64,000 nt of DNA from Alkalispirochaeta sp. (GTDB lineage: Bacteria; Spirochaetota; Spirochaetia; DSM-27196; Alkalispirochaetaceae). The stretch lies in assembly GCA_965601925.1 (NCBI GenBank), contig OZ271854.1, forward strand, positions 2,144,001-2,208,000, given 5' to 3'. Positions 18,204-55,783 of the stretch are shown here, one piece after another. Position 1 is the first letter of the stretch; each line of letters begins with the position of its first letter. The notes under the pieces are model-generated. The model had not been told where the DNA came from and ran no database searches. It was given only the letters and a program-made list of their open reading frames with translations. A program made the position numbers and the translations under genes.

Positions 18204-18835
18204 GTTTCTTATGTATTGAGCGATTTCACTGATGGGCTTTTGCCGTACCGGACAGCCGTGATAGGTACTTATTGTTCGCTCCTTCCGTTTTTATTATTAC
18301 ACTGCTTCCAATACGGCGCCAGGATGTCATATTAATGCAGTCGTAACGTCATTTTTGAATTAGAAGAGGAAACAGCATTCGATGAGTCCTTTGAAGTATC
18401 GACGATAGCACGCTTAAGGTGACCGTAGTGTTTTTCGGAGCCGATCACCCCCCATGCATTTCAGAATAAGAGCAATGAACGAATCGACATGCTCCTACGT
18501 CGTTCCCTTTTCTAAATCTTTTACTCTTCAACACTACTGCCTTTGACAAATCATTGACATACAACGCCTTATGAGTAGCCGAAGCCGAGACACAACAACG
18601 CATCCGTTCGATGGTGCCGCGTTACCGTAGCGGCATTGCGGTCGCTTGCAGACGCTTATCGTATCGGCTGGACATGCAAGACGTGCTCGGCGTCACATCA
18701 CGCTCGTCCTATAGTTTTCACATCTTGTGTTCCGGTGCAGTTTATCGATGTATGTTTTTCGACTGAGTTTGCCTCAGTTCTTTATCTCAGATGTGTTCGC
18801 TTTCCCGACGTTATCTCCGCACTACACTACGTGCG

Positions 18836-18960
18836 GCATAACACCGCGTCCAGCTGCGGGCTACGGTCCGGAGTCGCGAAACGGCGGAGGGATCGGCGCC
18901 GGTTTTGCGCGTGCAAAAGCCGTGACGAAGCAGCTTGACTGGTCCGGCGATATGTTGCCG
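18836..18960 (-). repeat. Long-type attC-like site (isolated, R'' degenerate)
   Basis: GCATAACACCG...GGAGTCGCGAAACGGCGGAGGGATCGGCG...TTGACTGGTCCGGCGATATGTT; same family as 41013/55663. Confidence 0.75.
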
Positions 18961-38957: not shown

Positions 38958-39758
38958 CTAGACCACTGCTTGAGTGAGTCCGTCCTCAAAGCTTCGCCAG
39001 ATTTCTTCCGGCGTGTGATTGCCAAGCGAGCTGTGTGGCCGGTACCGATTGTACTCATCGCGCCACAAAGCCAGTTTCTCCTGAGCGTCCCTCACGCCCA
39101 GGAACAGGTTCTCGTTGAGGAACTCGTCGCGTAGCTTTCCGTTGAAGCTCTCGACAGAGGAGTTCTCGATCGGCTTGCCCGGCGTGATCAGACACTGCTG
39201 AATGCCGCGCTGGATCGTCCACGCGATCATGGCCCGGGACGTGAACTCCGGCCCGTTATCACTCTTCAAACATTCCGGCTCACCGTGCATGATCGTCGAT
39301 TGCTCCAACGCCCGGATGACATCAGCGCTCGAACATGAACGAGCAATTCGTGCTGTGATCAGATACCGTGTGTACTCGTCCAACACGACCAGACACTTCA
39401 ACGACCGTCCGGATTCAGTCGTGTCGAAAACGAAATCCAATCCCCAGATCTGATTGGGCCGCATCGCTGCACTGGCCCTATTGCGCTGCACGATGAGCTT
39501 CTTCCGGCGTCGTGAGCGGAGCATCAACTGTTCCTCGCGATAGATCCGGTACACTTGCTTGTGATTCGCTTCACTATGGTCTCGCCGCAGTAACACGTGG
39601 ATCCGACGATACCCGAACCGCTTGTGCCTCTCGGCCAGTTCCTTGATGCGCGCCCGAATCCGAAGATCGTTCGGTTTCTTTGCCTCATACCGACATGTCG
39701 ATCGATGCAGCGACGCCAGTTCGCACGCTCGTCGCTCACTGACCCCATGGTGTTTCAA
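38958..39758 (-). CDS. IS3 transposase OrfB (rve DDE domain)
   Basis: FGYRRI, W.LDF, SDNGPEF, ESFNGKLRDE, YN..RPHSSLG; probably fused to OrfA by -1 frameshift at AAAAAAC near 39800. Confidence 0.92.
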   Translation of the reverse strand: MKHHGVSERRACELASLHRSTCRYEAKKPNDLRIRARIKELAERHKRFGYRRIHVLLRRDHSEANHKQVYRIYREEQLMLRSRRRKKLIVQRNRASAAMRPNQIWGLDFVFDTTESGRSLKCLVVLDEYTRYLITARIARSCSSADVIRALEQSTIMHGEPECLKSDNGPEFTSRAMIAWTIQRGIQQCLITPGKPIENSSVESFNGKLRDEFLNENLFLGVRDAQEKLALWRDEYNRYRPHSSLGNHTPEEIWRSFEDGLTQAVV

Positions 39759-40129: not shown

Positions 40130-40241
40130 GAGGTGCGACACGAATCCTCTTTTTCATGTGTTAAGGTCGAACGAAGTGAGCCCGAAGGGCTTGGCCTTTA
40201 CACATGAAAACGAGGGCGTACAATGAAAAAACTGCGGGAGG
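40130..40241 (+). promoter_or_regulatory. Conserved hairpin element, copy A (Frpo/ssi-like candidate)
   Basis: Stem 40145-40166/40195-40216; TTTACA-16 nt-TACAAT on the 3' arm; directly abutted by IS3. Confidence 0.55.
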
Positions 40242-40290
40242 ACCTTTCGGTTTGGGCGATTATGCGAAGTAGGCTGTTCTGGTATATCGC

Positions 40291-40602
40291 CTACATCGCC
40301 CGTTGTTCCGGGAGTTTCCCAATGATCTTGCGAACTTCGTCGGTCTCAACGAGTTGATCCGTCACATATCGGTGGACGATTGAACTGATGAGCGTTTGAT
40401 AGGGGATTCCTTCCTTGACCGCCTTTTTTTTCGTCAATTGCAGATCCTCTTCCGAAATTCGCAAGCTAATAGTCTGCGTCTTTCGCGCCCGATCGAGAAT
40501 GGCTTCAATCCGTTCGCGTTCTTCACCAACGACACTTTCCATCTGATCGATGGAATCTTCGATTTCTTGTTCTTCAGGCGTCAGGTCAAATATGTTCATC
40601 AC
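40291..40602 (-). CDS. BrnA/CopG-like antitoxin
   Basis: ISLRI...L...K.KA..EGIPYQTLI.S. Confidence 0.85.
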   Translation of the reverse strand: MMNIFDLTPEEQEIEDSIDQMESVVGEERERIEAILDRARKTQTISLRISEEDLQLTKKKAVKEGIPYQTLISSIVHRYVTDQLVETDEVRKIIGKLPEQRAM

Positions 40603-40862
40603 GAGCCTCCATATTGTTTGTGGTATTTCCGGCTTGGGAATGCCGTTTTCAGGACGACAGCTTCATCGTCATCGACGACAAATGGAACAATCCAGGTGTA
40701 ATCACGCATTCGAAGCACGAAGTATCGTTGTCCCGGCCGGGTCGGATTTTTGATGATATCGACATATCGCTTTTCCATGATGATGCCGGCAATTTCTTCA
40801 AATGAGACGCCGCGAGTTTGCTTGAGTACCTCATTTTTGTCCTCGTCCCAGATGATTTTCAT
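40599..40862 (-). CDS. BrnT-like toxin
   Basis: WDEDKN..LK..RGVSFEE, LKTAFPSRK. Confidence 0.85.
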   Translation of the reverse strand: MKIIWDEDKNEVLKQTRGVSFEEIAGIIMEKRYVDIIKNPTRPGQRYFVLRMRDYTWIVPFVVDDDEAVVLKTAFPSRKYHKQYGGS

Positions 40863-41012
40863 TCGGTATCATGATACATCCAGCGTATATACATTGTAAA
40901 CAATCGCATCGATCAATGTGTTACGAACGTTCTCCGGGATGCGTGTGCTTTTGCATTTTGATCTGGTAGAGGCTATTTCTTGGTGATTTGCGCTTAGGCT
41001 CCGCCGGGCGCA

Positions 41013-41134
41013 ATGTAACACCGAGCTGACCTGCAAGATGCGGCCCGGAGTCGCGAAGTGACGGAGGGATTGGCGCGTGCCTTGCGCATCGCAAGGCGCG
41101 TGACAAAGCAGATTGACTGGTCCAGCGTTATGTT
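41013..41134 (-). repeat. Long-type attC site, IS inserted at R''
   Basis: Minus-strand R' GTTACAT at 41013-41019; original R'' displaced to 42797-42803. Confidence 0.88.
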
Positions 41135-42796
41135 GAGACTGTCGCACAACGCAGTCGTGGTCTGCTAGCATCGTGCCTGGGAGGAGCCAATGCCGAACTA
41201 CCGAGGAAACGAGGGGCAGGATCTCATGATTCCGGTGTGCCTGGATGATCAGCTGGTGCCGGGTACCATCGAACACGCCATCACCTGGATCGTCGACCAC
41301 GAGATCGATACGTCGGTGTTCGATGCAGCCTATCACAACGACCACGGCGGTCGCCCGGCCTGTGATCCGGCCGCGCTGGTGAAGATCATCTTGTTCGCCT
41401 ACTCCCGGGGCATCCTCTCCTCACGGAAGATCGAGGAAGCCTGCCGGACCAACATCGTGTTCATGGCCCTCAGTGGTGATATCCGGCCCGACCACGCCAC
41501 GATCGCCCGGTTCGTTACCGGCCATCCCGCGGCGGTTCGTCGTGTGTTCCGGGATGTGCTGATGATTGCGGCACAGGGCGATCTGATCGGTGGGGACGTG
41601 TTTGCACTGGACGGCTGCAAGATCAGCTCGAACGCCGCCCGAGAGCACGCGGGGACGCGACGGGAACTGGAGAAGAAGAGAGCGAAGCTTGAAGCACGTC
41701 TTGAGGCGATACTGCTCACTCATCGCGGCGCAGATGAGGCATGCACCTCCGATAACGACGATCAACAGGGCAGACCCGGTTCAGGGACAGCTGATCGCTA
41801 CCGGGCGCAGATCGACCGCATCAAAGGATTCCTCGACGCCCATCCACCCCGCACCGGCACCAGCGGACGCGAGGTGAAATCCAACATCACCGACAATCAG
41901 AGTGCCACACTGAAAACCGGGAGTGGCTACATCCAGGGCTATAACGCGCTGGCGATGGTGGATGCGAAGCACCAGATCGTGCTACACGCTGAACCGGTCG
42001 GTCAGATCCATGAGGCACCGCTGCTGCCACGGATGGTGCGCCGGTCACTGCATACACTGCGCAGGTTCGCACATCCCCAGGCCTGCACACCGACCATCCT
42101 CGCTGATACCAACTATTTCACCGAATCCAACGCCCGGTTCCTGATCGACTCTGATCTCGACGGCTATATCCCCGACCATCAGTTCCGGAATCGGGACATG
42201 CGATTCGCGGATCGGAGTCGATCGCGCCGGGCGGCACACCGGCGCTTCACCCAAGCCGATTTCCTCTACCAGAGCGACACCGACAGCTATCGTTGTCCGG
42301 CCGGCAAGACGTTGCGACGGCGCACCCGGGAGGTGGTTGCCGGGCGTCGTGGTACGCGCTATGAAGCGAAGCAATCAGACTGCAGTGCATGCGATCTCAC
42401 CTCCCGCTGTCTGATCCGTACTGCAACCCGGCGTAGACTCTTCCGCGGTGACGGTCCAGCCGGGACCTATGCCCAACAGATGCGTGATCGGATCGACACC
42501 GAACGGGGTCGACGGATGTACGCCAGACGCATGGGTATCGTGGAGCCGGTCTTTGCGAACATCACCGCCACCAAGGGCATGCGACGATTCACGCTCCGAG
42601 GCCGGGCGAAGGTCCGCATTCAATGGCTCCTGTACACGCTGGTGCACAACATCGAAAAGATCGCCACCACCGGGCTGATTCATCGGTTAGTCGGAGTTTG
42701 ATCCGGGTGGGTGGCGGGTTGAAGAATGCCTGGCCACGATCACTGGCCGTGAACTACTCGCTCCGCGTGGGTTCCCACGCGTTGTGCGACAGCCTC
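41135..42796 (+). mobile_element. IS1182-family element, copy 1 (1662 bp)
   Basis: 18-bp IRs GAG(A/G)CTGTCGCACAACGC; GTT direct repeat on both flanks. Confidence 0.92.
41190..42701 (+). CDS. IS1182-family DDE transposase
   Basis: GRPACDP, SSRKIE, PDHATIARF, ALDGCK, ADTNY, CPAG, VEPVF, HNI. Confidence 0.93.
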   Translation: MPNYRGNEGQDLMIPVCLDDQLVPGTIEHAITWIVDHEIDTSVFDAAYHNDHGGRPACDPAALVKIILFAYSRGILSSRKIEEACRTNIVFMALSGDIRPDHATIARFVTGHPAAVRRVFRDVLMIAAQGDLIGGDVFALDGCKISSNAAREHAGTRRELEKKRAKLEARLEAILLTHRGADEACTSDNDDQQGRPGSGTADRYRAQIDRIKGFLDAHPPRTGTSGREVKSNITDNQSATLKTGSGYIQGYNALAMVDAKHQIVLHAEPVGQIHEAPLLPRMVRRSLHTLRRFAHPQACTPTILADTNYFTESNARFLIDSDLDGYIPDHQFRNRDMRFADRSRSRRAAHRRFTQADFLYQSDTDSYRCPAGKTLRRRTREVVAGRRGTRYEAKQSDCSACDLTSRCLIRTATRRRLFRGDGPAGTYAQQMRDRIDTERGRRMYARRMGIVEPVFANITATKGMRRFTLRGRAKVRIQWLLYTLVHNIEKIATTGLIHRLVGV

Positions 42797-42916
42797 GTTA
42801 CATTGCGACCTGCTTACCAGTATACGAGGAGATTTCCTGTTCTTCTTCTCTTTTTCACCGAGTGGCTGAAGCACCACGGTCAACCACCCGGTAATGATTA
42901 TTGGAATGGGGCCTTT

Positions 42917-43183
42917 CTATGAGGCCTTTTCTTGGCGGTGCGTCTGCTTGCCGGCGCGCGCCGCCACTTTGAAGATACATCCGTCGCACTGACCCTTTGT
43001 GCTTTTGCACCTGCAAGCGACGCATACGTCATAGAGATCATAATCATCAATCGCATCGAGGATGAGGCGATTCAGTGTCCTTGTCATTGGCTCATTCTTG
43101 AACCACGCCATTCGCCTGAGAGCAAACACCGCATCGCGGCTCACCTTGGGGACATACGTACCGGCAGTTTTTGTTGTGTGCAT
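42917..43183 (-). CDS. 88-aa RHH-like, Cys-rich hypothetical protein, copy 1
   Basis: GGAGGTG RBS before ATG 43183; YVPKVS..AVFALRRMAW...PMT..L; C..C.C......C..C; paralog at 54529. Confidence 0.8.
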   Translation of the reverse strand: MHTTKTAGTYVPKVSRDAVFALRRMAWFKNEPMTRTLNRLILDAIDDYDLYDVCVACRCKSTKGQCDGCIFKVAARAGKQTHRQEKAS

Positions 43184-43223
43184 TTTCTGCACCTCCATAA
43201 TGAGATGTATGCGAGACAACTCT

Positions 43224-43342
43224 CGCACCGGAGGTGCGACACGAATCCTCGTTTTCCTGTGTCAAGGTCGAACGCAGAGAGCCCGAAGGGCTTGGCCTTT
43301 ACACAGGGAAACGAGGACGTAGAATGAAAAAACTGCGGGAGG
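43224..43342 (+). promoter_or_regulatory. Conserved hairpin element, copy B (Frpo/ssi-like candidate)
   Basis: TCCTCGTTTTCCTGTGTCAAGG / CCTTTACACAGGGAAACGAGGA stem; TTTACA-16 nt-TAGAAT. Confidence 0.55.
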
Positions 43343-43413
43343 AAATCCTGGTTTAGGCAATTACGCGAAATAGGCCGATTCGGTTTTTGCTTGTGCCGCC
43401 CATCGATGCGTTA

Positions 43414-43812
43414 CTATTTCGCCCAGTTTTCGATATCCAGGCCGTTTATTCGCTCGAAGTGTTTTTGATTGTTCGTTACCAATATCAAATTGTGAGTGAG
43501 CGCCGTTGCAGCGATCAGCAGATCCATATCGGCGACAATATTTCCTTGCTTCTCTAATGACGTTTTGATTTCTCCGAATGTCTCAACCACGGCGGGGGTG
43601 ATGTCTATGATCGGAAACAATTCAGCAATCCGGTATGCTCGAGCAAGATTCTTTTCGACTGCCTTCGATTTCTTAGCTCCGTACACAAGTTCGCCATACG
43701 TGATGACCGATAACGATTTTGGCGAGTTCCGGTATTCATGGAAATTCTGCTTCACTCGTTCATCGCCTTTCAGGCTATAAATGACGATGTCGGTATCGAT
43801 CAAATAGTTCAT
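43414..43812 (-). CDS. vapC: VapC PIN-domain toxin
   Basis: YLIDTD, GELVYG, DLLIAATA, VTNN.KHF. Confidence 0.93.
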   Translation of the reverse strand: MNYLIDTDIVIYSLKGDERVKQNFHEYRNSPKSLSVITYGELVYGAKKSKAVEKNLARAYRIAELFPIIDITPAVVETFGEIKTSLEKQGNIVADMDLLIAATALTHNLILVTNNQKHFERINGLDIENWAK

Positions 43813-44074
43813 TTGTATTTGTAAATCGCGCTGATTCAGTTCGTCCGTTTCGAATGGATTTCACAATATCTTCGGCCGATCGATCATCTTCCCAACTTCC
43901 AGATAGTTTCAGAAATTCATCAGTTGGATTGATATCGAAGGCGCGAGGGAGGGACAGATATTTTTCCAGGATATGGACGACTTCTTGACTGATTGAACGT
44001 CGTTCTTTTGATGCGCGAACGCGCAACGATTCATAGAGTTTTTCGTCGATATCACGTACTTGCAAATTGGCCAT
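43775..44074 (-). CDS. FitA-like RHH antitoxin
   Basis: MANLQVRDIDEKLYE.L..RA....RSISQEV; GGAG RBS. Confidence 0.88.
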   Translation of the reverse strand: MANLQVRDIDEKLYESLRVRASKERRSISQEVVHILEKYLSLPRAFDINPTDEFLKLSGSWEDDRSAEDIVKSIRNGRTESARFTNTNELFDRYRHRHL

Positions 44075-44240
44075 AGGTTCTTCTCCGAGTCTCAGTATAC
44101 ATCCATTCATGAATTATGTGTAGATTTGCATGATTCCCATCGTGTGGTCTGGGAATTACGATTAAAGCATTCTCGCACCAGCATTTTGATCTGGTAGAGG
44201 CTATTTCTTGGTGATTTGCGCTTAGGCTCCGCCGGGCGCA

Positions 44241-44362
44241 ATGTAACACCGAGCTGACCTGCAAGATGCGGCCCGGAGTCGCGAAGTGACGGAGGGATTG
44301 GCGCGTGCCTTGCGCATCGCAAGGCGCGTGACAAAGCAGATTGACTGGTCCAGCGTTATGTT
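44241..44362 (-). repeat. Long-type attC site, IS inserted at R''
   Basis: Identical to 41013-41134; original R'' at 46025-46031. Confidence 0.88.
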
Positions 44363-46024
44363 GAGACTGTCGCACAACGCAGTCGTGGTCTGCTAGCATC
44401 GTGCCTGGGAGGAGCCAATGCCGAACTACCGAGGAAACGAGGGGCAGGATCTCATGATTCCGGTGTGCCTGGATGATCAGCTGGTGCCGGGTACCATCGA
44501 ACACGCCATCACCTGGATCGTCGACCACGAGATCGATACGTCGGTGTTCGATGCAGCCTATCACAACGACCACGGCGGTCGCCCGGCCTGTGATCCGGCC
44601 GCGCTGGTGAAGATCATCTTGTTCGCCTACTCCCGGGGCATCCTCTCCTCACGGAAGATCGAGGAAGCCTGCCGGACCAACATCGTGTTCATGGCCCTCA
44701 GTGGTGATATCCGGCCCGACCACGCCACGATCGCCCGGTTCGTTACCGGCCATCCCGCGGCGGTTCGTCGTGTGTTCCGGGATGTGCTGATGATTGCGGC
44801 ACAGGGCGATCTGATCGGTGGGGACGTGTTTGCACTGGACGGCTGCAAGATCAGCTCGAACGCCGCCCGAGAGCACGCGGGGACGCGACGGGAACTGGAG
44901 AAGAAGAGAGCGAAGCTTGAAGCACGTCTTGAGGCGATACTGCTCACTCATCGCGGCGCAGATGAGGCATGCACCTCCGATAACGACGATCAACAGGGCA
45001 GACCCGGTTCAGGGACAGCTGATCGCTACCGGGCGCAGATCGACCGCATCAAAGGATTCCTCGACGCCCATCCACCCCGCACCGGCACCAGCGGACGCGA
45101 GGTGAAATCCAACATCACCGACAATCAGAGTGCCACACTGAAAACCGGGAGTGGCTACATCCAGGGCTATAACGCGCTGGCGATGGTGGATGCGAAGCAC
45201 CAGATCGTGCTACACGCTGAACCGGTCGGTCAGATCCATGAGGCACCGCTGCTGCCACGGATGGTGCGCCGGTCACTGCATACACTGCGCAGGTTCGCAC
45301 ATCCCCAGGCCTGCACACCGACCATCCTCGCTGATACCAACTATTTCACCGAATCCAACGCCCGGTTCCTGATCGACTCTGATCTCGACGGCTATATCCC
45401 CGACCATCAGTTCCGGAATCGGGACATGCGATTCGCGGATCGGAGTCGATCGCGCCGGGCGGCACACCGGCGCTTCACCCAAGCCGATTTCCTCTACCAG
45501 AGCGACACCGACAGCTATCGTTGTCCGGCCGGCAAGACGTTGCGACGGCGCACCCGGGAGGTGGTTGCCGGGCGTCGTGGTACGCGCTATGAAGCGAAGC
45601 AATCAGACTGCAGTGCATGCGATCTCACCTCCCGCTGTCTGATCCGTACTGCAACCCGGCGTAGACTCTTCCGCGGTGACGGTCCAGCCGGGACCTATGC
45701 CCAACAGATGCGTGATCGGATCGACACCGAACGGGGTCGACGGATGTACGCCAGACGCATGGGTATCGTGGAGCCGGTCTTTGCGAACATCACCGCCACC
45801 AAGGGCATGCGACGATTCACGCTCCGAGGCCGGGCGAAGGTCCGCATTCAATGGCTCCTGTACACGCTGGTGCACAACATCGAAAAGATCGCCACCACCG
45901 GGCTGATTCATCGGTTAGTCGGAGTTTGATCCGGGTGGGTGGCGGGTTGAAGAATGCCTGGCCACGATCACTGGCCGTGAACTACTCGCTCCGCGTGGGT
46001 TCCCACGCGTTGTGCGACAGCCTC
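44363..46024 (+). mobile_element. IS1182-family element, copy 2
   Basis: Same IRs, length and GTT duplication as copy 1. Confidence 0.92.
44418..45929 (+). CDS. IS1182-family DDE transposase
   Basis: Protein identical to copy 1. Confidence 0.93.
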   Translation: MPNYRGNEGQDLMIPVCLDDQLVPGTIEHAITWIVDHEIDTSVFDAAYHNDHGGRPACDPAALVKIILFAYSRGILSSRKIEEACRTNIVFMALSGDIRPDHATIARFVTGHPAAVRRVFRDVLMIAAQGDLIGGDVFALDGCKISSNAAREHAGTRRELEKKRAKLEARLEAILLTHRGADEACTSDNDDQQGRPGSGTADRYRAQIDRIKGFLDAHPPRTGTSGREVKSNITDNQSATLKTGSGYIQGYNALAMVDAKHQIVLHAEPVGQIHEAPLLPRMVRRSLHTLRRFAHPQACTPTILADTNYFTESNARFLIDSDLDGYIPDHQFRNRDMRFADRSRSRRAAHRRFTQADFLYQSDTDSYRCPAGKTLRRRTREVVAGRRGTRYEAKQSDCSACDLTSRCLIRTATRRRLFRGDGPAGTYAQQMRDRIDTERGRRMYARRMGIVEPVFANITATKGMRRFTLRGRAKVRIQWLLYTLVHNIEKIATTGLIHRLVGV

Positions 46025-46039
46025 GTTATATGGCGGGCA

Positions 46040-48031
46040 TTAGGCGCCTTGATACCATTCTGACGGTATTAACTTGCGTCCGGCACGCCATTCCTCAACC
46101 TCATGTATATTCCCTATTTCGCCGTATATGCTTTTATCTGCGTGATCCAGAATGATGGCCTGCCATTCGCCATCACTTTCTGCCACGGCATCGGCAAGTG
46201 TACGGAAAATTTGCCTTACAGCTTGCTCATCATCTTCGTCATCGTATCGAGAATCCTCTTCTTCTACTTCCTCACCGCTCTTTACCTTAGGGAAATAGAC
46301 CTGACTTGGCTGATCAAATACGGCGAAACTCGGTACTACCGACCAGCTTTGCTCTAAAAAAAATTTTTGAAGCGCGCATATCAGAGCTAAATGGAAGGAA
46401 ACCCAGTTTGATGCGCTGCCAATTTCTGACAAATAATGCCAGTTTCTATCGGTACTTATTACCTGCATATTCAAGTCTTTAACGTTCAATGACGGTGGTG
46501 TTTCGCGGTATTTTGCTTCTACGTCTAAAGTTTGAAGATAGTTCAAAATGTATTGCGAAATACGCATTTTAGCCGCAGAGAGACGCCTTTCCACCGCTTT
46601 AGGATCAATAACTTGCAAAAGATGCTCTCGGCGGGCTACAAGAGTTGCAATACGTTCTTCGAGCTCGCCACCGGCTTGAAGCTTTTCAAATGTTTCAACC
46701 GAGGCTTTCAGATGGCCCAAGAACAAAAAAAGAGTTTTTGCCTTTTGAAACTCTTCCTTTGTTTTTTGGTCACGAAGAAACAGCGTGTCATACCGATCTC
46801 TTAGAATTCTTTGCTCCTCGATTAAGCTTTCAAGTTCTTTATTTAAACGTTCTTCTTCTCTGTCGAATGATGTCGGGATTTCCTCAACGCGCTTCGACTC
46901 GGCTTCATATTCCTCGAACACCGAAGCTATTCTTGACATTTCTTCACTACTTCTTGGATGATCATCGCTTCCACATAGAGGGCAGACCTTGGCATCAGAG
47001 GCCAGATCTGTTAGCCAGTTGGAAATATGCAACCTGTCAGAACGTCTTTTTACAGTCACGCTATACTCTGTTAGACTGGTCTTAAGCTGCTTCACGTCGT
47101 CGAGTCGTTTACGTAGCTTTGCCAATCGCTGGCTTAAATCATCCTCTTCCTTGTCTAATTCAATTAGCGCCTGACTCGCTTTTTGAAAATTACTTAACTC
47201 TGCAATTGAATAATTCGGGGCCTCTTGGACTAGTTGTCTTGCGATTAGGATTAGTTCGTCTGGGTCCGAAACATCTCGTGGGTCTCGATCGAGCAAACCA
47301 TATTGTTGGGCTATTCTGAGTTGCCCCTGTAGATTATTCGACCACGATTTTGAGTGAGCTTTCGCTCGTTCAAAATCGCGTTCAAGTGCTTTTAGACGCT
47401 GTTCGAGCTCCTGCAGTTCCTGTCTAGCTTTCAGAACCTCTATATTCTCTGCGCCCAGTATGAAAGGAAGCCAGTTGCGAAGTCGTTCGCGATGTTCATG
47501 AGCATGCGTTTTATAGAATAGGATGTTCTGATTTGCGACTATGTCTTGGCTTTGAAAGACCAACGCAACCAAATCTCGGAAGCCCAAACGTGCTTGATAG
47601 GCTTTTCTTTCGAACTCGCCCTCGAGAGAAAAATATGGCACATTGGAAATTGTGTTTAAGATGTTTTTGACCCCTTCGGGGTTCTCGTTGGCCGTTTCAA
47701 TGACGGGGGGAACTGAAATTTCCTTTGCGCGGGTCACATAGAAATTTGAAGACACCTTATTGTCTTTCGGCACGGCACGAGCGATAAGAATTTGCTCAGA
47801 TTGTGTTTGAAATGCGACACCGTACCAGGAGGCATAGTCGCGTATGACATCAATAGGCACATTACATTCTGTTGAAGCAAGACAGTAATCAATCAGTGGT
47901 ATTATTGCAGATTTTCCTGTTCGAGATGCGCCGGTTATCACGTTCAGCTTTCCTGGTACAAATTCAACAACTCTTGGTGGGAATGTTGAATCGATTGGCC
48001 AAATTAAAACTTTTAACAGTTGGAATTGCAT
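46040..48031 (-). CDS. lmuB: Lamassu/ABC-3C SMC-like ATPase (LmuB, DUF3732-like)
   Basis: Walker A GASRTGKS, coiled coils with CPLC hook, IGSASNW signature, FDQPSQVYFP, LDHA; TAATG coupling to upstream gene. Confidence 0.85.
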   Translation of the reverse strand: MQFQLLKVLIWPIDSTFPPRVVEFVPGKLNVITGASRTGKSAIIPLIDYCLASTECNVPIDVIRDYASWYGVAFQTQSEQILIARAVPKDNKVSSNFYVTRAKEISVPPVIETANENPEGVKNILNTISNVPYFSLEGEFERKAYQARLGFRDLVALVFQSQDIVANQNILFYKTHAHEHRERLRNWLPFILGAENIEVLKARQELQELEQRLKALERDFERAKAHSKSWSNNLQGQLRIAQQYGLLDRDPRDVSDPDELILIARQLVQEAPNYSIAELSNFQKASQALIELDKEEDDLSQRLAKLRKRLDDVKQLKTSLTEYSVTVKRRSDRLHISNWLTDLASDAKVCPLCGSDDHPRSSEEMSRIASVFEEYEAESKRVEEIPTSFDREEERLNKELESLIEEQRILRDRYDTLFLRDQKTKEEFQKAKTLFLFLGHLKASVETFEKLQAGGELEERIATLVARREHLLQVIDPKAVERRLSAAKMRISQYILNYLQTLDVEAKYRETPPSLNVKDLNMQVISTDRNWHYLSEIGSASNWVSFHLALICALQKFFLEQSWSVVPSFAVFDQPSQVYFPKVKSGEEVEEEDSRYDDEDDEQAVRQIFRTLADAVAESDGEWQAIILDHADKSIYGEIGNIHEVEEWRAGRKLIPSEWYQGA

Positions 48032-48534
48032 TACAAGACAACCTTCAGGTATTGTGCCGCCGATGAAACACTTATTTGGGAAAACCATTTGCCGAGAATT
48101 TGTGCTTTTTCCCCATTTTTCATATGCATTTCATTAATTAACCCTCTTTTTATATTCCCATATTCATGAATTCGTGGATAAATCTTTGCGGAATCTTTAT
48201 CCCAAACTATAAGCCCCGACTTTATTGCAATATCAATTGCCGAAATTGTTACGCTTCGCTTCTTTTTTATTCTTTCTTGTAGAGAAACCAGCAAATCGAT
48301 TTCTTTCTTCTGCTCGAAACCTCTTACGTAAGACTGAAGGCTTTTCCGGCGATTATTAACAGAAAGCAAGAAATGATCGGTTGTGAGCAGTGGATACGCC
48401 ATGAAGTGTAATAATGCCACAGGAGCGTCTCCAGTTGAATGATGACTAACGAAACCAACAGTGAAGTTCCAGAGTTGGTATGCTCCTATCACTGGAGAAT
48501 TCCAGTTTCTAACTTCATCTACTAAGCTTTCCAT
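48031..48534 (-). CDS. ABC-3C middle component (LmuC-like)
   Basis: NSP.IGA..L..F, PLL, A..LGKWF; lies between effector and ATPase. Confidence 0.8.
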   Translation of the reverse strand: MESLVDEVRNWNSPVIGAYQLWNFTVGFVSHHSTGDAPVALLHFMAYPLLTTDHFLLSVNNRRKSLQSYVRGFEQKKEIDLLVSLQERIKKKRSVTISAIDIAIKSGLIVWDKDSAKIYPRIHEYGNIKRGLINEMHMKNGEKAQILGKWFSQISVSSAAQYLKVVL

Positions 48535-48546
48535 GTTTTGCTCTCT

Positions 48547-49692
48547 CTATGCTTTTTGAATCAAGTTTTGCCAGCGTGGATGCCAACCCAGGAGTTCGTT
48601 ATCTGCTAATGTATGATACGTCCCCGCAATGGTTGAGCTTGGAGGAGGCATGTTCCTTATTGTTGCTTGATGAGTTGAGCAATCAAGTAGCAACAGTTGT
48701 CCTCGGACTTCTTCGGGTTTGTCTTGTTGAGTTAGAAAAATTCTCTTTTTTGAATGGACCCAGAACTCCGATAACTTGTTCTGAAAATCCACAGCGGAGT
48801 CCTCGTCTATGATTTCATTTTCGATCCACTTTTGACGGTTGACTTTCGCCTTTAGAAACGCAGTGACCGACTCAACAATCTCTTCTTCTGTGCAGTCAAT
48901 TAGTTCTAACTGTTTAATATATGAAGGGCGTAGCTTTAATTGCATTTTTTTCATTTTATCGTCGATAGGATCTATCAAAGTGAAATCTATCAACTCTCTT
49001 TGTCGCACACGATCAAAAAGAACGGATTTCTCTTTGTAAAAATCGTCCCAAGTAATGCAAGCTATTTGGTTTTCAGCGATCATTTCGGTCAGTGTATTGT
49101 GCAACCAGCCAGTAAGATTTTGAACAAGGAAAGGGATTTGGGTTTCAGGTACAAGTATTCGCTTTAGTTCGTCACGTACTTCATCTAAGCCCGCACCGTC
49201 TCCTATTATTAAACTAAATTTCTTAATTATTTCAATAAATAAATTTTCATTATTCAATAAATAGCTATAATATTTCCAAATATTGTGTTCATTATTAATA
49301 TCAGAGAAGCCTTTCTTGATTTCTGAAATAACTTGACGAGCGTCATCGGTATCTTTCGCAGAATTTAGTCTATTAACAAGGGCTGGCTTACCATGATTGT
49401 TGGCGTAGAGAATGAAGCATGTGGTTTCCGTGTCAATATTGCTTTCTTGAACAAGAATTGCCCAGTTATAAAATGTTTTCCAAAGATTTGTAGATCTATC
49501 TGTTAAAGGATTTCCCAGGACTGAGGACTTATCTTCCTCAGAAACCATATCTCCTTCACGAGAAGTTACAGATACATCTCCATTGAACTCAACATATACA
49601 GTTCCACCGGGGCCAGTACGCAATAAGTGAAAAAGTGCTCGAGGAATTTGGATAGAATAGCCCAGAAATTGACCAGATGCATTCGAACTCAT
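48547..49692 (-). CDS. ABC-3C effector (LmuA-like; Cap4-type nuclease N-terminus plus C-terminal domain)
   Basis: A.GQFLGY..Q, VE..GDV, EEDKS, LTDRS.NLWKT..NW; C-terminal G.YH.LAD....GWHP.W. Confidence 0.78.
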   Translation of the reverse strand: MSSNASGQFLGYSIQIPRALFHLLRTGPGGTVYVEFNGDVSVTSREGDMVSEEDKSSVLGNPLTDRSTNLWKTFYNWAILVQESNIDTETTCFILYANNHGKPALVNRLNSAKDTDDARQVISEIKKGFSDINNEHNIWKYYSYLLNNENLFIEIIKKFSLIIGDGAGLDEVRDELKRILVPETQIPFLVQNLTGWLHNTLTEMIAENQIACITWDDFYKEKSVLFDRVRQRELIDFTLIDPIDDKMKKMQLKLRPSYIKQLELIDCTEEEIVESVTAFLKAKVNRQKWIENEIIDEDSAVDFQNKLSEFWVHSKKRIFLTQQDKPEEVRGQLLLLDCSTHQATIRNMPPPSSTIAGTYHTLADNELLGWHPRWQNLIQKA

Positions 49693-49844
49693 AAATCTGC
49701 AACCTTAGTAATTCTATGCCAACCTCGTAGATAGTCAAATAGTAATATCGACGTTACAAAACCATCTCGCCAATATTAAACACATCGGGCCAGCGTCATT
49801 GTTTAGCATCCTCCATCGTGAAGAATCTTACCTGCTCTAAAGCC

Positions 49845-49961
49845 ATATAACACCGAGCTGACCTGCAAGATGCGGCCCGGAGCCGTAGGCGGAGGGATTG
49901 GCGCGGTTTTTGCGCACGCAAAAGCCGTGACAAAGCAGATTGACTGGTCCAGCGTTATGTT
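49845..49961 (-). repeat. Long-type attC site, IS inserted at R''
   Basis: R' GTTATAT; original R'' ACATAAC at 51624-51630 overlaps the upstream stop codon. Confidence 0.88.
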
Positions 49962-51623
49962 GAGACTGTCGCACAACGCAGTCGTGGTCTGCTAGCATCG
50001 TGCCTGGGAGGAGCCAATGCCGAACTACCGAGGAAACGAGGGGCAGGATCTCATGATTCCGGTGTGCCTGGATGATCAGCTGGTGCCGGGTACCATCGAA
50101 CACGCCATCACCTGGATCGTCGACCACGAGATCGATACGTCGGTGTTCGATGCAGCCTATCACAACGACCACGGCGGTCGCCCGGCCTGTGATCCGGCCG
50201 CGCTGGTGAAGATCATCTTGTTCGCCTACTCCCGGGGCATCCTCTCCTCACGGAAGATCGAGGAAGCCTGCCGGACCAACATCGTGTTCATGGCCCTCAG
50301 TGGTGATATCCGGCCCGACCACGCCACGATCGCCCGGTTCGTTACCGGCCATCCCGCGGCGGTTCGTCGTGTGTTCCGGGATGTGCTGATGATTGCGGCA
50401 CAGGGCGATCTGATCGGTGGGGACGTGTTTGCACTGGACGGCTGCAAGATCAGCTCGAACGCCGCCCGAGAGCACGCGGGGACGCGACGGGAACTGGAGA
50501 AGAAGAGAGCGAAGCTTGAAGCACGTCTTGAGGCGATACTGCTCACTCATCGCGGCGCAGATGAGGCATGCACCTCCGATAACGACGATCAACAGGGCAG
50601 ACCCGGTTCAGGGACAGCTGATCGCTACCGGGCGCAGATCGACCGCATCAAAGGATTCCTCGACGCCCATCCACCCCGCACCGGCACCAGCGGACGCGAG
50701 GTGAAATCCAACATCACCGACAATCAGAGTGCCACACTGAAAACCGGGAGTGGCTACATCCAGGGCTATAACGCGCTGGCGATGGTGGATGCGAAGCACC
50801 AGATCGTGCTACACGCTGAACCGGTCGGTCAGATCCATGAGGCACCGCTGCTGCCACGGATGGTGCGCCGGTCACTGCATACACTGCGCAGGTTCGCACA
50901 TCCCCAGGCCTGCACACCGACCATCCTCGCTGATACCAACTATTTCACCGAATCCAACGCCCGGTTCCTGATCGACTCTGATCTCGACGGCTATATCCCC
51001 GACCATCAGTTCCGGAATCGGGACATGCGATTCGCGGATCGGAGTCGATCGCGCCGGGCGGCACACCGGCGCTTCACCCAAGCCGATTTCCTCTACCAGA
51101 GCGACACCGACAGCTATCGTTGTCCGGCCGGCAAGACGTTGCGACGGCGCACCCGGGAGGTGGTTGCCGGGCGTCGTGGTACGCGCTATGAAGCGAAGCA
51201 ATCAGACTGCAGTGCATGCGATCTCACCTCCCGCTGTCTGATCCGTACTGCAACCCGGCGTAGACTCTTCCGCGGTGACGGTCCAGCCGGGACCTATGCC
51301 CAACAGATGCGTGATCGGATCGACACCGAACGGGGTCGACGGATGTACGCCAGACGCATGGGTATCGTGGAGCCGGTCTTTGCGAACATCACCGCCACCA
51401 AGGGCATGCGACGATTCACGCTCCGAGGCCGGGCGAAGGTCCGCATTCAATGGCTCCTGTACACGCTGGTGCACAACATCGAAAAGATCGCCACCACCGG
51501 GCTGATTCATCGGTTAGTCGGAGTTTGATCCGGGTGGGTGGCGGGTTGAAGAATGCCTGGCCACGATCACTGGCCGTGAACTACTCGCTCCGCGTGGGTT
51601 CCCACGCGTTGTGCGACAGCCTC
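49962..51623 (+). mobile_element. IS1182-family element, copy 3
   Basis: Same IRs, length and GTT duplication. Confidence 0.92.
50017..51528 (+). CDS. IS1182-family DDE transposase
   Basis: Protein identical to copies 1 and 2. Confidence 0.93.
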   Translation: MPNYRGNEGQDLMIPVCLDDQLVPGTIEHAITWIVDHEIDTSVFDAAYHNDHGGRPACDPAALVKIILFAYSRGILSSRKIEEACRTNIVFMALSGDIRPDHATIARFVTGHPAAVRRVFRDVLMIAAQGDLIGGDVFALDGCKISSNAAREHAGTRRELEKKRAKLEARLEAILLTHRGADEACTSDNDDQQGRPGSGTADRYRAQIDRIKGFLDAHPPRTGTSGREVKSNITDNQSATLKTGSGYIQGYNALAMVDAKHQIVLHAEPVGQIHEAPLLPRMVRRSLHTLRRFAHPQACTPTILADTNYFTESNARFLIDSDLDGYIPDHQFRNRDMRFADRSRSRRAAHRRFTQADFLYQSDTDSYRCPAGKTLRRRTREVVAGRRGTRYEAKQSDCSACDLTSRCLIRTATRRRLFRGDGPAGTYAQQMRDRIDTERGRRMYARRMGIVEPVFANITATKGMRRFTLRGRAKVRIQWLLYTLVHNIEKIATTGLIHRLVGV

Positions 51624-51624
51624 G

Positions 51625-54306
51625 TTATGTTGATTCTTTGAGAGCGTACTTTCGCTCCCTCTTTTCGAATGCCTCGACACCACCCTCAAGGTTTAATAGC
51701 GAGTTTCGGTGGGATAGGTCTTCAATTGTAGCAAAGTCGACGTTGGTCTTAGCCTCGGGCATTGATAAGATAGTAGTTAGCTCGGCGTCAGCATTGACTA
51801 CAATGTTGGCATTGTGTGTAGCGAATATCATCTGCCGTGAAGACTTCTTTTCCTTGATCAGGTCAACCAGGTAGTTCGCGATCAAAGAACTATCTAGATG
51901 GGCCTCTGGTTCATCAATGATGATTGGGTTATTTCCAAACAACAACAGAATCACGATCACCGTCGTGCAACGTTGACCAAACGAGGACGCTTCGATTGGC
52001 CGTCCTCGATATCTCACATTGACTCGAATCACTTCGTTAAAATCGAAATAGGCGACTCGTGCAAGATGTTTATAAATCGAAAAATTAATCTCATCGGCGA
52101 ATACCTTCGCAAGATATCGTCGAGAATTTGTGTCCCCAACAACGTGGTTACGTAAGTCATCTATGGATACACTCTCGTCTATTAGTGCTTTCGGATCGAT
52201 TCCAAACAGACACTCTTTGACCCTATCAGACCTATAGTTGAACTCTGTTCCCAAATCACCGAAATGATCTATGAAACGCGCGAACAGATTCTCTGTTGCT
52301 GTTTCTTCGTCTATCCCTACATTCAGTTCGATTCTATCAATTTCGTTTGGATTACTCCTGTTAACGTTCTCCAAAACTGATTTCAATGCGCCTATTTCGT
52401 TGGTGACTACACTAACCAGGTTGTTGAATGAAGCTTGAAGCTTCGATTCATCGTGTTCCTCAATCTGATCGTCGATCATCGATATCCGCGAATCAATATC
52501 GTCAAGTTCGGCTGATAGAGAATCAACGAGGCTCCCTGAGTTCTTTATATCTTCTATGTTCTCAGGTGTTACTCCGATTCCCTCAAGATATTGACCCAGT
52601 TCGTCTTGTCTTTCTCGATGTTGAGTCTGGAGTTTATTTTCAGTCTCGATTTCTTTATCGAAGATAGACTCGGACAGGAACGATGTGTGTAGCTGCGAGA
52701 GCCCTTTCAAAAACTCGTTATATGCGACCAGATAATGGGAGCTATCTTCATTGTTTTGGACTGGAGGATGGTTCTTAAGCAACTCATTGACGTCATCTCT
52801 CAGTCTTTCCAAACGTGTTCGTTCGGCCCTAATACCGACAAGTTTTCTATTAGATTCGGTCACGGAATCGTTCAGGGTTTTGTAGTCGTCTCCTTCAATT
52901 GTCGCTGATACTTTCTTGTTGCTGTCTAAACTCAAGACAATACGACGACGTTCAGTGATTGCCTGTTGCTTCTCGACTAATAGACGGATGATATCTTCTA
53001 CTTCGGAAGTAGCTGTTGTTACAGCCAGTTCTTTCTCCGCGACATGAGAGTTACGGCGTCGAATCCGATCGTAAATGGCGTCGGTGAACTTCCGAGGATT
53101 GGTGGCATATTCTTCGATCTCGTTCTGTTCGAGAAACTCTAACCCCTCCGCTGAGTGGTCCACCTGAACAAAATCCGAATGACTTACATTTGAACCATCG
53201 GGGGTGATCGTGTTTTCCTTGTTAAACGTTGTAGAGGCCCCACTACGGATTACATCGACCAGCACGTTGAGCAAAGTGCTTTTCCCGGTTCCCCGGCCCC
53301 CGGTTACACACGTCAGAAAGGGACTAAGTTCCCAGTCTATCCTTACACCGGCGAAACAGAATGTCGAAGGTTCCGTACCGGTTCTGTTGATGATCACATT
53401 TTCGGGATAGTCCATATTCATTCTGGTTATACGTTTAGGCGCAAAAGGAGGACGAGCCTCGCCGATCTTTACTCTGTGCGCAGGCTCGAAGAAGACCTGG
53501 CGGAGCCCTTCAAAAGTTAGATCAGCTTTTATCCAAGTGATGTCTTTGTGGATTTGGCCGTTTTCTTCGCATCGTTTTCCGAGATAGTGATCAAGATCGT
53601 CGAACGAATGAGCATCGCTTCCAGAAAAAACGGGTTTGGGTATTGATGCCGAACTTGAGTCATCATATCGATTGGCAGACAGAAACCATTCAACGTTCTG
53701 TGATCCACCAAAAAATCCATCGGAAATCTTATCGATCTCATCGCTTATTATGCGTTTGCGTGGAGATTTGGAATCCGCTCGAATACCGGCATTGTTTGCG
53801 GCGGCAAGAATAAGAAATGGACGCATATCACCGAATACTTCGTGGAGTTTTTCTAATACTTCATGCTGGTTGACGCATGCAGAGACATATTCCGAAGGTT
53901 CGAGCTCAATACAAGATACTCTTGCGCCGTTTATAGTTTTGGATATCTTCAACTCATGCAGAAATCTCTCGATCTTCGACCGATCAAGTTGACTATCGAA
54001 AATGACATGGAGGTTTACCTCTTCCGCTGCTTTGTTGACTGACACATCAAGACGAAGCTCGATATTCGGGAAAAAAACTTTACCTGAGTTGGGATAAAGG
54101 CGCTTGTATTCGCTTAGGAACTCGAAATGACGGGCGACGGAGAAATAGTCGGTGATTCCAAACGCAATAACATCTGATTCATGAAGTTTGCGACAAAAAT
54201 CAACCAGACTGTTAGCGTTTGTCGCCAAATCGTAGCCGTCATTGAGATTTGTACCCGGAGGATGCACATGCAGATCCCATTTCCGCCAAATGGACCCGGT
54301 TGACAT
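51625..54306 (-). CDS. PHP phosphoesterase fused to ABC-type ATPase (Ppl/TrlF-like, probable anti-phage)
   Basis: WDLHVH, GITDY, NIELR, HVIF, GSDAH, TWIKAD.TFEGL; GGRGTGKST, SFGQR, IDEPEAHLD, ATHNAN. Confidence 0.85.
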   Translation of the reverse strand: MSTGSIWRKWDLHVHPPGTNLNDGYDLATNANSLVDFCRKLHESDVIAFGITDYFSVARHFEFLSEYKRLYPNSGKVFFPNIELRLDVSVNKAAEEVNLHVIFDSQLDRSKIERFLHELKISKTINGARVSCIELEPSEYVSACVNQHEVLEKLHEVFGDMRPFLILAAANNAGIRADSKSPRKRIISDEIDKISDGFFGGSQNVEWFLSANRYDDSSSASIPKPVFSGSDAHSFDDLDHYLGKRCEENGQIHKDITWIKADLTFEGLRQVFFEPAHRVKIGEARPPFAPKRITRMNMDYPENVIINRTGTEPSTFCFAGVRIDWELSPFLTCVTGGRGTGKSTLLNVLVDVIRSGASTTFNKENTITPDGSNVSHSDFVQVDHSAEGLEFLEQNEIEEYATNPRKFTDAIYDRIRRRNSHVAEKELAVTTATSEVEDIIRLLVEKQQAITERRRIVLSLDSNKKVSATIEGDDYKTLNDSVTESNRKLVGIRAERTRLERLRDDVNELLKNHPPVQNNEDSSHYLVAYNEFLKGLSQLHTSFLSESIFDKEIETENKLQTQHRERQDELGQYLEGIGVTPENIEDIKNSGSLVDSLSAELDDIDSRISMIDDQIEEHDESKLQASFNNLVSVVTNEIGALKSVLENVNRSNPNEIDRIELNVGIDEETATENLFARFIDHFGDLGTEFNYRSDRVKECLFGIDPKALIDESVSIDDLRNHVVGDTNSRRYLAKVFADEINFSIYKHLARVAYFDFNEVIRVNVRYRGRPIEASSFGQRCTTVIVILLLFGNNPIIIDEPEAHLDSSLIANYLVDLIKEKKSSRQMIFATHNANIVVNADAELTTILSMPEAKTNVDFATIEDLSHRNSLLNLEGGVEAFEKRERKYALKEST

Positions 54307-54843: not shown

Positions 54844-54960
54844 CGCACCGGAGGTGCGCGACGCTCCTCGTTTTCATGTGTCAAGGTCGAACGAAGTGAG
54901 CCCGAAGGGCTTGGCCTTTACACATGAAAAAGAGGACGTACCATGAGAAGACTGCGGGAG
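54844..54960 (+). promoter_or_regulatory. Conserved hairpin element, copy C (Frpo/ssi-like candidate)
   Basis: TCCTCGTTTTCATGTGTCAAGG / CCTTTACACATGAAAAAGAGGA stem; TTTACA-16 nt-TACCAT. Confidence 0.55.
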
Positions 54961-54988
54961 CAGGTTAGGTTGAGGCAATTTCGGGGTG

Positions 54989-55309
54989 TTACCGGAGGTT
55001 TCTTCGGAGCAATATGTCTTCGATGTTTCGCCGCCCATCAATTACGGCAAGGATCAATACTCGATCGGATTCTTGCGTATAGAACACGCGCCATGGCGCG
55101 ACGATGATCTCTCGATATTTGGTGATGTTCTGCCGTTCGAGTTCCGGAATGACCCGTCCGGTTTCCGGAAATTCTGATAGTCGCGATACTTCGGAATCAA
55201 TCTTTTCTGCGATGTTCTTCGCAATAGTCGCTGAAGAATGACTGATAATCCAATCAATGATTTCTCGGAAGTCTATCGCCGCGCTCGCGGCCCATGTTAT
55301 TTGTGCCAT
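54989..55309 (-). CDS. RelE/ParE family toxin
   Basis: ITWA.SA..D...I, L..FPE.GR..PE, YREII..PWRVFY, DGRR. Confidence 0.9.
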   Translation of the reverse strand: MAQITWAASAAIDFREIIDWIISHSSATIAKNIAEKIDSEVSRLSEFPETGRVIPELERQNITKYREIIVAPWRVFYTQESDRVLILAVIDGRRNIEDILLRRNLR

Positions 55310-55315
55310 CGAACA

Positions 55316-55588
55316 TCAATCAGGAATACGACTATAGATGTCGTCCATGACCGATTGATGATCGACGGTTCGGTTGTCTGCAATATCCTTTTCACTTTGC
55401 GATATGAGTTTCATCAGTCCGAGGGCATCTTTCATTTCTTGATAGGTTTCGGTGTCGAGTAGTACCGCTCGTGCTTCACCATTTTGAGTGATTAATATCG
55501 GATTATGAGTGTCATTGACTTGCCGCAACATTTCCGCGGCGTTGCTTTTCACATACGAAATAGGGCGAATATCTGAACGAAGATTCAT
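55316..55588 (-). CDS. Phd/YefM family antitoxin
   Basis: DIRPISYVK, PILITQNGEA.AVL. Confidence 0.9.
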   Translation of the reverse strand: MNLRSDIRPISYVKSNAAEMLRQVNDTHNPILITQNGEARAVLLDTETYQEMKDALGLMKLISQSEKDIADNRTVDHQSVMDDIYSRIPD

Positions 55589-55662: not shown

Positions 55663-55783
55663 ACATAACACCGAGCTGACCTGCAAGATGCGGCCCGGAG
55701 CCGCAGGCGGAGGGATTGGCGCGACTTTTGCGCATGCAAAAGTCGTGACAAAGCAGATTGACTGGTCCAGCGTTATGTTATGA
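55663..55783 (-). repeat. Intact long-type attC site (121 bp), empty IS target
   Basis: Minus strand TCATAAC...CGCTGGACCAGTC...GCAGGTCAGCTCGGT-GTTATGT, 8 bp after a stop codon. Confidence 0.9.

Follow-up and report, generated by a model that had tools for sequence, protein, structure and literature searches.

Copies of an IS1182-family insertion sequence at a single nucleotide of integron attC sites in Alkalispirochaeta sp.

How do several copies of one insertion sequence (IS) come to lie at the same nucleotide of different attC sites, all in the same orientation with respect to the cassette genes? This question is raised by a 64,000-nucleotide stretch of the genome of Alkalispirochaeta sp. 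(positions 2,144,001 to 2,208,000 of contig OZ271854.1, assembly GCA_965601925.1), hereafter the window, to which coordinates refer unless they are given as genome positions. The host genome consists of one contig of 5.05 Mb with a G+C content of 60%. A first-pass annotation of the window had described three 1662-bp copies of an IS1182-family element in a cassette array, and had proposed that this element targets the R'' box of attC with single-nucleotide precision and leaves the site intact. We found five identical copies of the IS at one attC nucleotide, with a duplication of GTT, and the transposase probably recognises the architecture of the attC hairpin next to a TGTTA sequence. Homing to attC is likely to be built into the transposase.

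Each copy is 1,662 bp long and has, in the list of open reading frames (ORFs) of the window, a single ORF encoding a transposase of 503 aa. The terminal inverted repeats of 18 bp (17/18 matching) read GAGACTGTCGCACAACGC at the left end (IRL) and, read inward, GAGGCTGTCGCACAACGC at the right end (IRR). They begin directly inside two copies of GTT, and since GTT is a direct rather than an inverted repeat and lies outside the inverted repeats, it is a target duplication and not a part of the element. The transposase matched the NCBIfam model NF033551 (IS1182 family transposase) with 283 bits, above the cut-off of 270, and the Pfam domains DUF772, DDE_Tnp_1_6 and DDE_Tnp_1. In an alignment of 34 transposases of the clade described below, residues D141, D258, E452, Y444 and R447 were invariant; judging from the motif, D141, D258 and E452 would form the DDE triad and Y444 and R447 would belong to its Y-R-E signature, a pattern as expected for a presumably active DDE enzyme. 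The element is an IS of the IS1182 family with a DDE transposase, as the first-pass annotation had stated. Only DDE/IS1182 and IS5 models matched it, with no match to a DEDD transposase of the IS110/IS1111 type, and the DDE transposase is its only long ORF, with neither a reverse transcriptase nor a maturase (no Rfam scan for a ribozyme was made). We also considered whether the IS itself might be a gene cassette moved by IntI, and rejected this candidate: it is bounded by its inverted repeats, with a direct repeat of GTT at the R'' end, and not by the G|TT of R', and it has no attC of its own. In the same alignment, three cysteines (C369, C401 and C407) were invariant and a fourth (C398) nearly so, all between the second D and the E; these residues may correspond to a zinc-binding insertion.

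The genome contains exactly five copies of the IS, 100% identical to one another, three of them within the window. Neither diverged copies (protein-level search) nor solo ends or miniature derivatives (search for the IS ends) were found elsewhere in the genome. All five copies are at the same attC nucleotide, in the arrangement CCAGCGTTAT-GTT-IS-GTT-A, with a left flank of ...(G/C)TCCAGCGTTAT-GTT and a right flank of GTT-A.... In the window, the copies are preceded by ...GGTCCAGCGTTATGTT and followed by GTTA..., and their right flanks diverge directly after GTTA. The empty site at 55663-55783 reads ...CCAGCGTTATGTTATGA, and the empty sister sites of the genome (n=4) read GTTATGTTA, in context ...CCAGCGTTATGTTA..., or, at a diverged site, ...GATATGTTG.... 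Because the empty sites have a single GTT and the filled sites two, GTT is a 3-bp duplication made on insertion. The account given in the first-pass annotation, of three copies in one orientation opposite to the cassette genes, of a GTT duplication, and of an empty site that shows the pre-insertion state, was borne out in all these respects.

A census of the attC family, made by running a profile of the flanking repeat over the genome, revealed nine full-length sites, five occupied and four empty, and a tenth, weak match. On both strands together, the genome has 2,134 TGTTA and 128,069 GTT sites; given these numbers, the presence of 5/5 copies in 5/9 attC sites of the family excludes chance. 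The family is spread over three loci (genome 2162833-2199779, 3558303-3568283 and 3734245-3738718), of which only the middle one adjoins the integrase gene and the third is inverted.

The flanking repeat folds as a classical attC, with an R box, 4-5 unpaired spacer bases, an L stem with a bulged base, and a variable top. At all five occupied sites, the R boxes pair at 5-7 of 7 positions and the L stem at 7/7. In the fold of the empty site, the outer GTTATG pairs with CATAAC of R' and the inner GTTA(T) forms the unpaired spacer, so the duplicated GTT is the conserved triplet of an R box. Folding energies were -29.7 to -32.9 kcal/mol for the bottom strands, versus -19.9 to -25.1 kcal/mol for the top strands, and the stabler predicted fold of the bottom strand could be relevant if folding is involved. 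A strict structural scan for attC in the window returned one empty site only, the other sites being missed because the occupied ones are interrupted and the others diverged.

The end of attC at which the element lies was deduced from the middle locus. The integron integrase gene intI (TIGR02249, 396.7 bits; genome 3568284-3569585, plus strand) starts about 1.9 kb from the end of IS copy 4 (3566426). The first cassette ORF, of 538 aa (3566428-3568044, minus strand), has its TAA within the GTTA to the right of this copy, and the order from intI outward is the first cassette ORF, IS copy 4 and then the attC body. On the attI side, CCACATAAC (3568210-3568218) is the exact complement of the right flank of copy 4, GTTATGTGG, as it should be if both belong to a single cassette, one at either end. 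On the plus strand, the L stem has its bulged base in the 3' arm, and in the canonical attC layout the extrahelical bases are in the bottom-strand arm that matches the bulge arm observed here. The position of intI, the attI junction, the overlapping stops and the side of the bulge thus assign the IS to the R'' (inverse-core) end, in an orientation antisense to the cassettes, as had been proposed with single-nucleotide precision from the window alone. By the same evidence, the plus strand of the window is the bottom strand of attC, and the attC body is separated from its cassette ORF by the IS, which has not entered the R' crossover point. Both ends of all nine attC sites have TGTTA five bases from the stem, and the IS occupies 5/9 of the R'' ends and 0/9 of the R' ends. 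The attC cluster of the window is 1.4 Mb from intI.

Insertion does not disturb the R' crossover site or the cassette ORF, including its overlapping stop. Copy 3 illustrates this: the preservation of the stop of the adjoining PHP-ATPase gene, reported in the first-pass annotation, was found again, the TAA of this 893-aa ORF lying inside the right GTTA. At the left junction, ...GTTAT-GTT-GAGA, the reverse complement of which is TCTC-AAC-ATAACGCTGG, the letters of the core consensus GTTRRRY are restored, as GTT+GAGA on the bottom strand and as TCTCAAC on the top strand. By eye, 3-4/7 positions of the rebuilt box can pair with R', versus 5-7/7 before insertion. The earlier statement that the site is left intact appears, from these letters, to be only partly justified: the core TCTCAAC is indeed rebuilt, but the pairing of the R boxes is reduced.

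Whether this placement is peculiar to one genome was addressed with homologues from a genome collection (2 loci), metagenome contigs (10 loci) and 401 genomes of the host phylum (28 matching, E <= 1e-20). Their ends were located from their own termini (GAGNCTGT... and variants) and from comparisons of copies within a genome. Among the unique sites outside our genome for which both ends were available, 24/25 have GTT on both sides of the IS. Tabulated together with the five own copies, all in attC, this gives 29/30 and agrees with the specificity first proposed. The exception (L038) is decayed and has a broken frame, its left flank being GTT and its right flank TTA or ATT. GTT was also found at the loci with a single end (L019, L021, L025, L037 and L067).

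In a maximum likelihood tree of 26 transposases, all 18 elements with GTT or AAC flanks fell into one clade (100/100); their identity to the query is 37-66%. Eight distant IS1182-family elements from the same phylum (21-27% identity) fell outside this clade, and their ends lack GTT; attC homing therefore belongs to one clade and not to the family. The tree excludes duplicate copies of an element, matches over only part of the protein, and frames that are broken or contain N (L017, L027, L038, L041, L069, L072, L075 and L077). The GTT-IS-GTT habit is common to this well-supported clade, the members of which come from several phyla and lie mostly in attC-like hairpins.

Among 1.84 billion representatives, 623 clusters were retrieved at E <= 1e-30, about 40 of them full-length, with 36-48% identity. 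In a plasmid collection, the protein had three weak matches, carried by replicons of Pseudoalteromonas and Catenovulum; one of them has a right end reading CTC followed by GTTAGAG. A DNA search for the same IS in 60 relatives of the host returned weak partial matches only, in 2 genomes. In coral metagenomes of two other studies, relatives of the IS about 91-95% identical to it meet the attC arm at the very same nucleotide junction. The runs X5 and X7 of these metagenomes, compared with window positions 49700-51900, had a high summed depth on the attC arm (94-315), which suggests that many attC sites of this family occur there.

The side of attC that is used depends on the sublineage. At 17 sites (four own copies and L016, L030, L033, L034, L035, L041, L069, L071-L074, L076 and L077), a minus-strand frame ends 4-70 nt from IRR, which is the R''/antisense geometry described above. 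By comparison, a sublineage with strong support in the tree (L036/L037/L020/L022/L023/L026; 100/99) has plus-strand ORFs on both sides of the IS; in L026, for instance, the IS is preceded at a distance of 108 nt by the end of a 334-aa frame and followed, after 17 nt, by a ribosome-binding site with an ATG. In the complete genomes G030 and G038, the copies of this sister sublineage are on the strand opposite to intI and on its 5' side, and in L036 the bulges of attC are in the 5' arm of the transposase strand. The plus-strand ORFs, the placement of intI and the L036 bulges together show that the sister sublineage uses the R' crossover end and is in sense orientation. The end that abuts the hairpin is IRL, upstream of the transposase gene, in both sublineages.

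These observations are consistent with the following mechanism. The 3-bp direct repeat would result from staggered cuts made by the DDE enzyme in double-stranded target DNA. In the simplest reading, the transposase, alone or in a complex with a host or integron protein, would read the structural asymmetry of attC, for example its bulged bases and spacer, and attC would perhaps be recognised in an extruded or replication-exposed form. Structural recognition is inferred because the targets in different hosts share only TGTTA, yet have a fixed distance to the stem, a fixed IS end and, within each sublineage, a fixed side. The copies would persist because insertion here spares both the ORF and the R' crossover point, and an IS inside a cassette would be carried along when the integrase excises that cassette. 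No direct trace of such hitch-hiking of the IS with excised cassettes was found.

Several observations weigh against recognition of the attC hairpin. The elements L031, L032/L063 and L052 are flanked by AAC, which corresponds to the opposite orientation relative to the target triplet; they form a small sublineage, in which L031 and L032 group as sisters (100/99). In L017, on a contig of a metagenome-assembled genome of Ca. Fraserbacteria (about 1500-1745), there is an IS at each end of one attC, with the IRL of both facing the hairpin; a gap of N lies inside, and the join is uncertain. Five further loci or pairs of loci (L070, L074, L035/L066, L041 and L027) look like non-attC places, so that GTT or TGTTA alone can suffice at times. 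Furthermore, copies 1 and 2 of our genome, which share their attC and 60 bp beyond it, may be non-independent, and the identity of the copies could be due to gene conversion rather than to recent movement. Enrichment by selection, after insertion of lower specificity, is also an alternative, to which we assign a low probability.

In its strongest form, this alternative states that the short TGTTA/GTT core is sufficient, that insertions outside attC are harmful and lost, and that the gap between ORF and attC is tolerated rather than recognised; we consider it improbable. The target logo of 29 sites is compatible with it, as it consists of T (25/29), GTT (29/29) and A (23/29) with little else conserved. 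Moreover, the R boxes of attC contain the TGTTA/GTT motif by definition, and some relatives are at a GTT without a recognisable attC. A crude test for attC (AAC 45-215 nt upstream, complementarity of the R boxes and a 7-bp L stem) was applied to these 29 sites, with 3,997 random GTT sites of the host genome as the control. A score of at least 13 was reached by 8/29 sites versus 0.3% of the random GTT sites, a score of at least 12 by 13/29 versus 4.0%, and a score of at least 11 by 20/29 versus 18%. The remaining 9/29 scored less than 11, below the level reached by 18% of random sites, which counts against the hairpin as the target; several of the lower-scoring sites are clearly attC by eye. 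An additional test, based on local alignment of the arms, did not separate the targets from random GTT sites. However, many of the 2,134 genomic TGTTA sites are surely neutral, and yet all five identical, and probably recent, copies are in attC sites of a single family with nine members. The R' ends, which offer the same TGTTA at the same spacing, hold none of them. Orientation and side are fixed within the sublineages, and a 5-bp core cannot account for this.

A second explanation, which we regard as very improbable, is that there was one original insertion and that homologous recombination, segmental duplication or cassette shuffling by the integrase produced the rest, with no real specificity for the target. 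The 100% identity of all the copies would be in keeping with such an origin, and so would copies 1 and 2: the 60 bp that they share in addition to attC (40953-41012, identical to 44181-44240) are found nowhere else in the genome. However, the five own sites comprise four kinds of attC sequence and five distinct right flanks, which diverge exactly at the end of the IS, the copies belong to three loci that are separated by 1.4-1.55 Mb and of which one is inverted, and the same junction is found in unrelated hosts. With the pair formed by copies 1 and 2 counted once, the four attC kinds and five right flanks imply at least four independent insertions. The first-pass annotation had argued for at least two, on the basis of differing right flanks and of a third attC unlike the other two; both observations hold, attC1 and attC2 being identical.

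The shared 60 bp end at an ATG, and together with the IS and attC they make up an identical block of 1.84 kb. The identical block extends over the cassette boundary at R' and is cut off precisely at the right tip of the IS. To judge from its limits, the pattern does not look like cassette shuffling, and the excision and insertion of cassettes would not predict such identity. The block may have arisen by gene conversion that spread from the IS into similar flanks, or by an earlier duplication of the attC junction. At the boundary of the 60 bp, inspection by eye revealed no convincing sequence resembling an inverted repeat that could have served as a surrogate left end. The five identical copies could also have mediated the rearrangements that split the attC family over three loci; all the junctions have the same GTT. 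The GC skew of the genome, examined with regard to the replication strand of the targets, is shallow, with a minimum near 1.6 Mb and a maximum near 3.8 Mb.

Finally, it is hardly conceivable that one repeat was placed several times by the assembler, as might be suspected of identical repeats in a single-contig assembly, since each copy has unique flanks on both sides, and since in the contigs of run X1 the unitig containing the IS (window 49932-51627) ends at the points at which the flanks of the five copies begin to differ and has a depth of 143.4, about four times that of both flanks (33-35.4), which argues against an artefact and supports real multiple copies.

Two kinds of mobile elements, unrelated to each other, are described as attC-homing in the literature that we found. 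The IS1111-attC group (ISPa21, ISPst6 and ISKpn4; IS1111/IS110 families) targets the attC of cassettes, near its 5' end and antisense to cassette transcription, according to PMC3001079. This is the same place and orientation in attC as for the element described here. However, IS1111/IS110 elements have a DEDD transposase guided by a seekRNA, as PMC11187229 describes, whereas the present element combines an IS1182-family DDE transposase with terminal inverted repeats and duplicates 3 bp of its target (a guide RNA was not searched for). Group IIC-attC introns, such as S.ma.I2, enter the bottom strand of attC, part the gene from its attC and are antisense to the cassettes, again according to PMC3001079. 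Place and orientation are thus the same here too, but these introns belong to the retroelements, having a ribozyme and a reverse transcriptase, whereas the present element is a DNA transposon. The IS1182 family at large, with IS1272 among its named members, shares the type of transposase, but its eight distant members mentioned above (21-27% identity) lack the GTT flanks. Elements of the IS1202 family insert at dif/pdif sites in one orientation and at a fixed distance from the site of the tyrosine recombinases, according to PMC10132070. The likeness lies in the single orientation and fixed distance; the IS family is a different one, and the XerC/D target has no hairpin-forming site.

According to the first-pass annotation, attC targeting is not known for IS1182 DDE elements. 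We likewise found no description of attC homing by elements of the IS1182 type or by other DDE elements in the literature, our coverage of which mostly excludes subscription journals. A DDE lineage that homes to the 5' end of attC at single-base precision would, if our reading is true, represent a third independent solution, and would mark this spot as especially accessible or safe. It would also be a case of a DDE transposase that chooses a structured DNA site without a guide RNA, which bears on the understanding of target choice. Integron cassette arrays rank among the main reservoirs of adaptive genes, with defence and toxin-antitoxin genes in the window and resistance genes elsewhere. Such IS break up arrays, part genes from their attC and provide homologous stretches at which rearrangements can occur, and they therefore have a bearing on the evolution of cassette arrays and on software for finding integrons. 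We put forward a broader scenario tentatively, and regard it as somewhat doubtful: the clade would read the asymmetric attC hairpin, with one end per sublineage, and cut GTT with a 3-bp stagger, and the IS tip (GTT+GAGN = GTTRRRY) would restore the core, so that the cassettes stay recombinogenic and carry the IS between genomes and phyla when integrons exchange them, as a third and mechanistically independent form of attC homing.

The features of the window and the two copies outside it are listed in Table 1. Among the cassette genes, the trio upstream of IS copy 2 resembles Lamassu, with scores of 385 bits for LmuB and 143 bits for LmuA and a weak one for LmuC. Together with the ATPase upstream of copy 3, this indicates that the cassettes adjoining copies 2 and 3 encode predicted anti-phage systems.

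Table 1. Coordinates of the IS copies, attC sites and neighbouring cassette genes (window positions, except where genome positions are indicated)
Feature	Coordinates	Strand	Remarks
Empty attC, diverged	18833-18956	-	target T-GTT-G
attC1 body	41013-41134	-	R' box ATGTAAC 41013-19; left GTT copy 41132-34
IS copy 1	41135-42796	+	IRL 41135-41152, IRR 42779-42796
Transposase ORF of IS copy 1, 503 aa	41190-42701	+	DUF772 + DDE_Tnp_1_6
Right GTT and R'' remainder of attC1, GTTACAT	42797-42803	-	complementary to attC1 R' box, 7/7
attC2 body	44241-44362	-	identical to attC1
IS copy 2	44363-46024	+	transposase ORF 44418-45929
Lamassu-like trio, cassette genes upstream of IS copy 2	46040-49692	-	LmuB 46040-48088, LmuC 48031-48534, LmuA 48547-49692
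attC3 body	49845-49961	-	central part unlike attC1/attC2
IS copy 3	49962-51623	+	transposase ORF 50017-51528
Right GTT and R'' remainder of attC3, GTTATGT	51624-51630	-	holds TAA stop 51625-51627 of 893-aa ORF
893-aa ATPase, cassette gene upstream of IS copy 3	51625-54306	-	partial match to Ppl defence protein, 68.7 bits
Empty attC, same family	55663-55783	-	target GTT 55777-55779
IS copy 4	genome 3564765-3566426	+	
IS copy 5	genome 3736942-3738603	-	

The array also contains toxin-antitoxin pairs of the BrnT/CopG-like (40291-40862), FitA-like ribbon-helix-helix/PIN (43414-44110) and Phd/ParE (54989-55588) types. Beside these genes, a conserved element of about 150 nt is present three times (40130-40283, 43231-43384 and 54850-55003; 69-86% alike). 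A long imperfect hairpin, CCTCGTTTTCATGTGT...ACACATGAAAACGAGG around GAGCCCGAAGGGCTT, forms its core, and the element is not attC-like. Just to the left of the array, at 38958-39758 on the minus strand, there is an unrelated ORF for an IS3-type transposase (rve, rve_3 and HTH_21). Near intI, between two attC sites (genome 3558577-3563413), four ORFs of 168, 716, 376 and 360 aa are on the plus strand, opposite to the cassettes.

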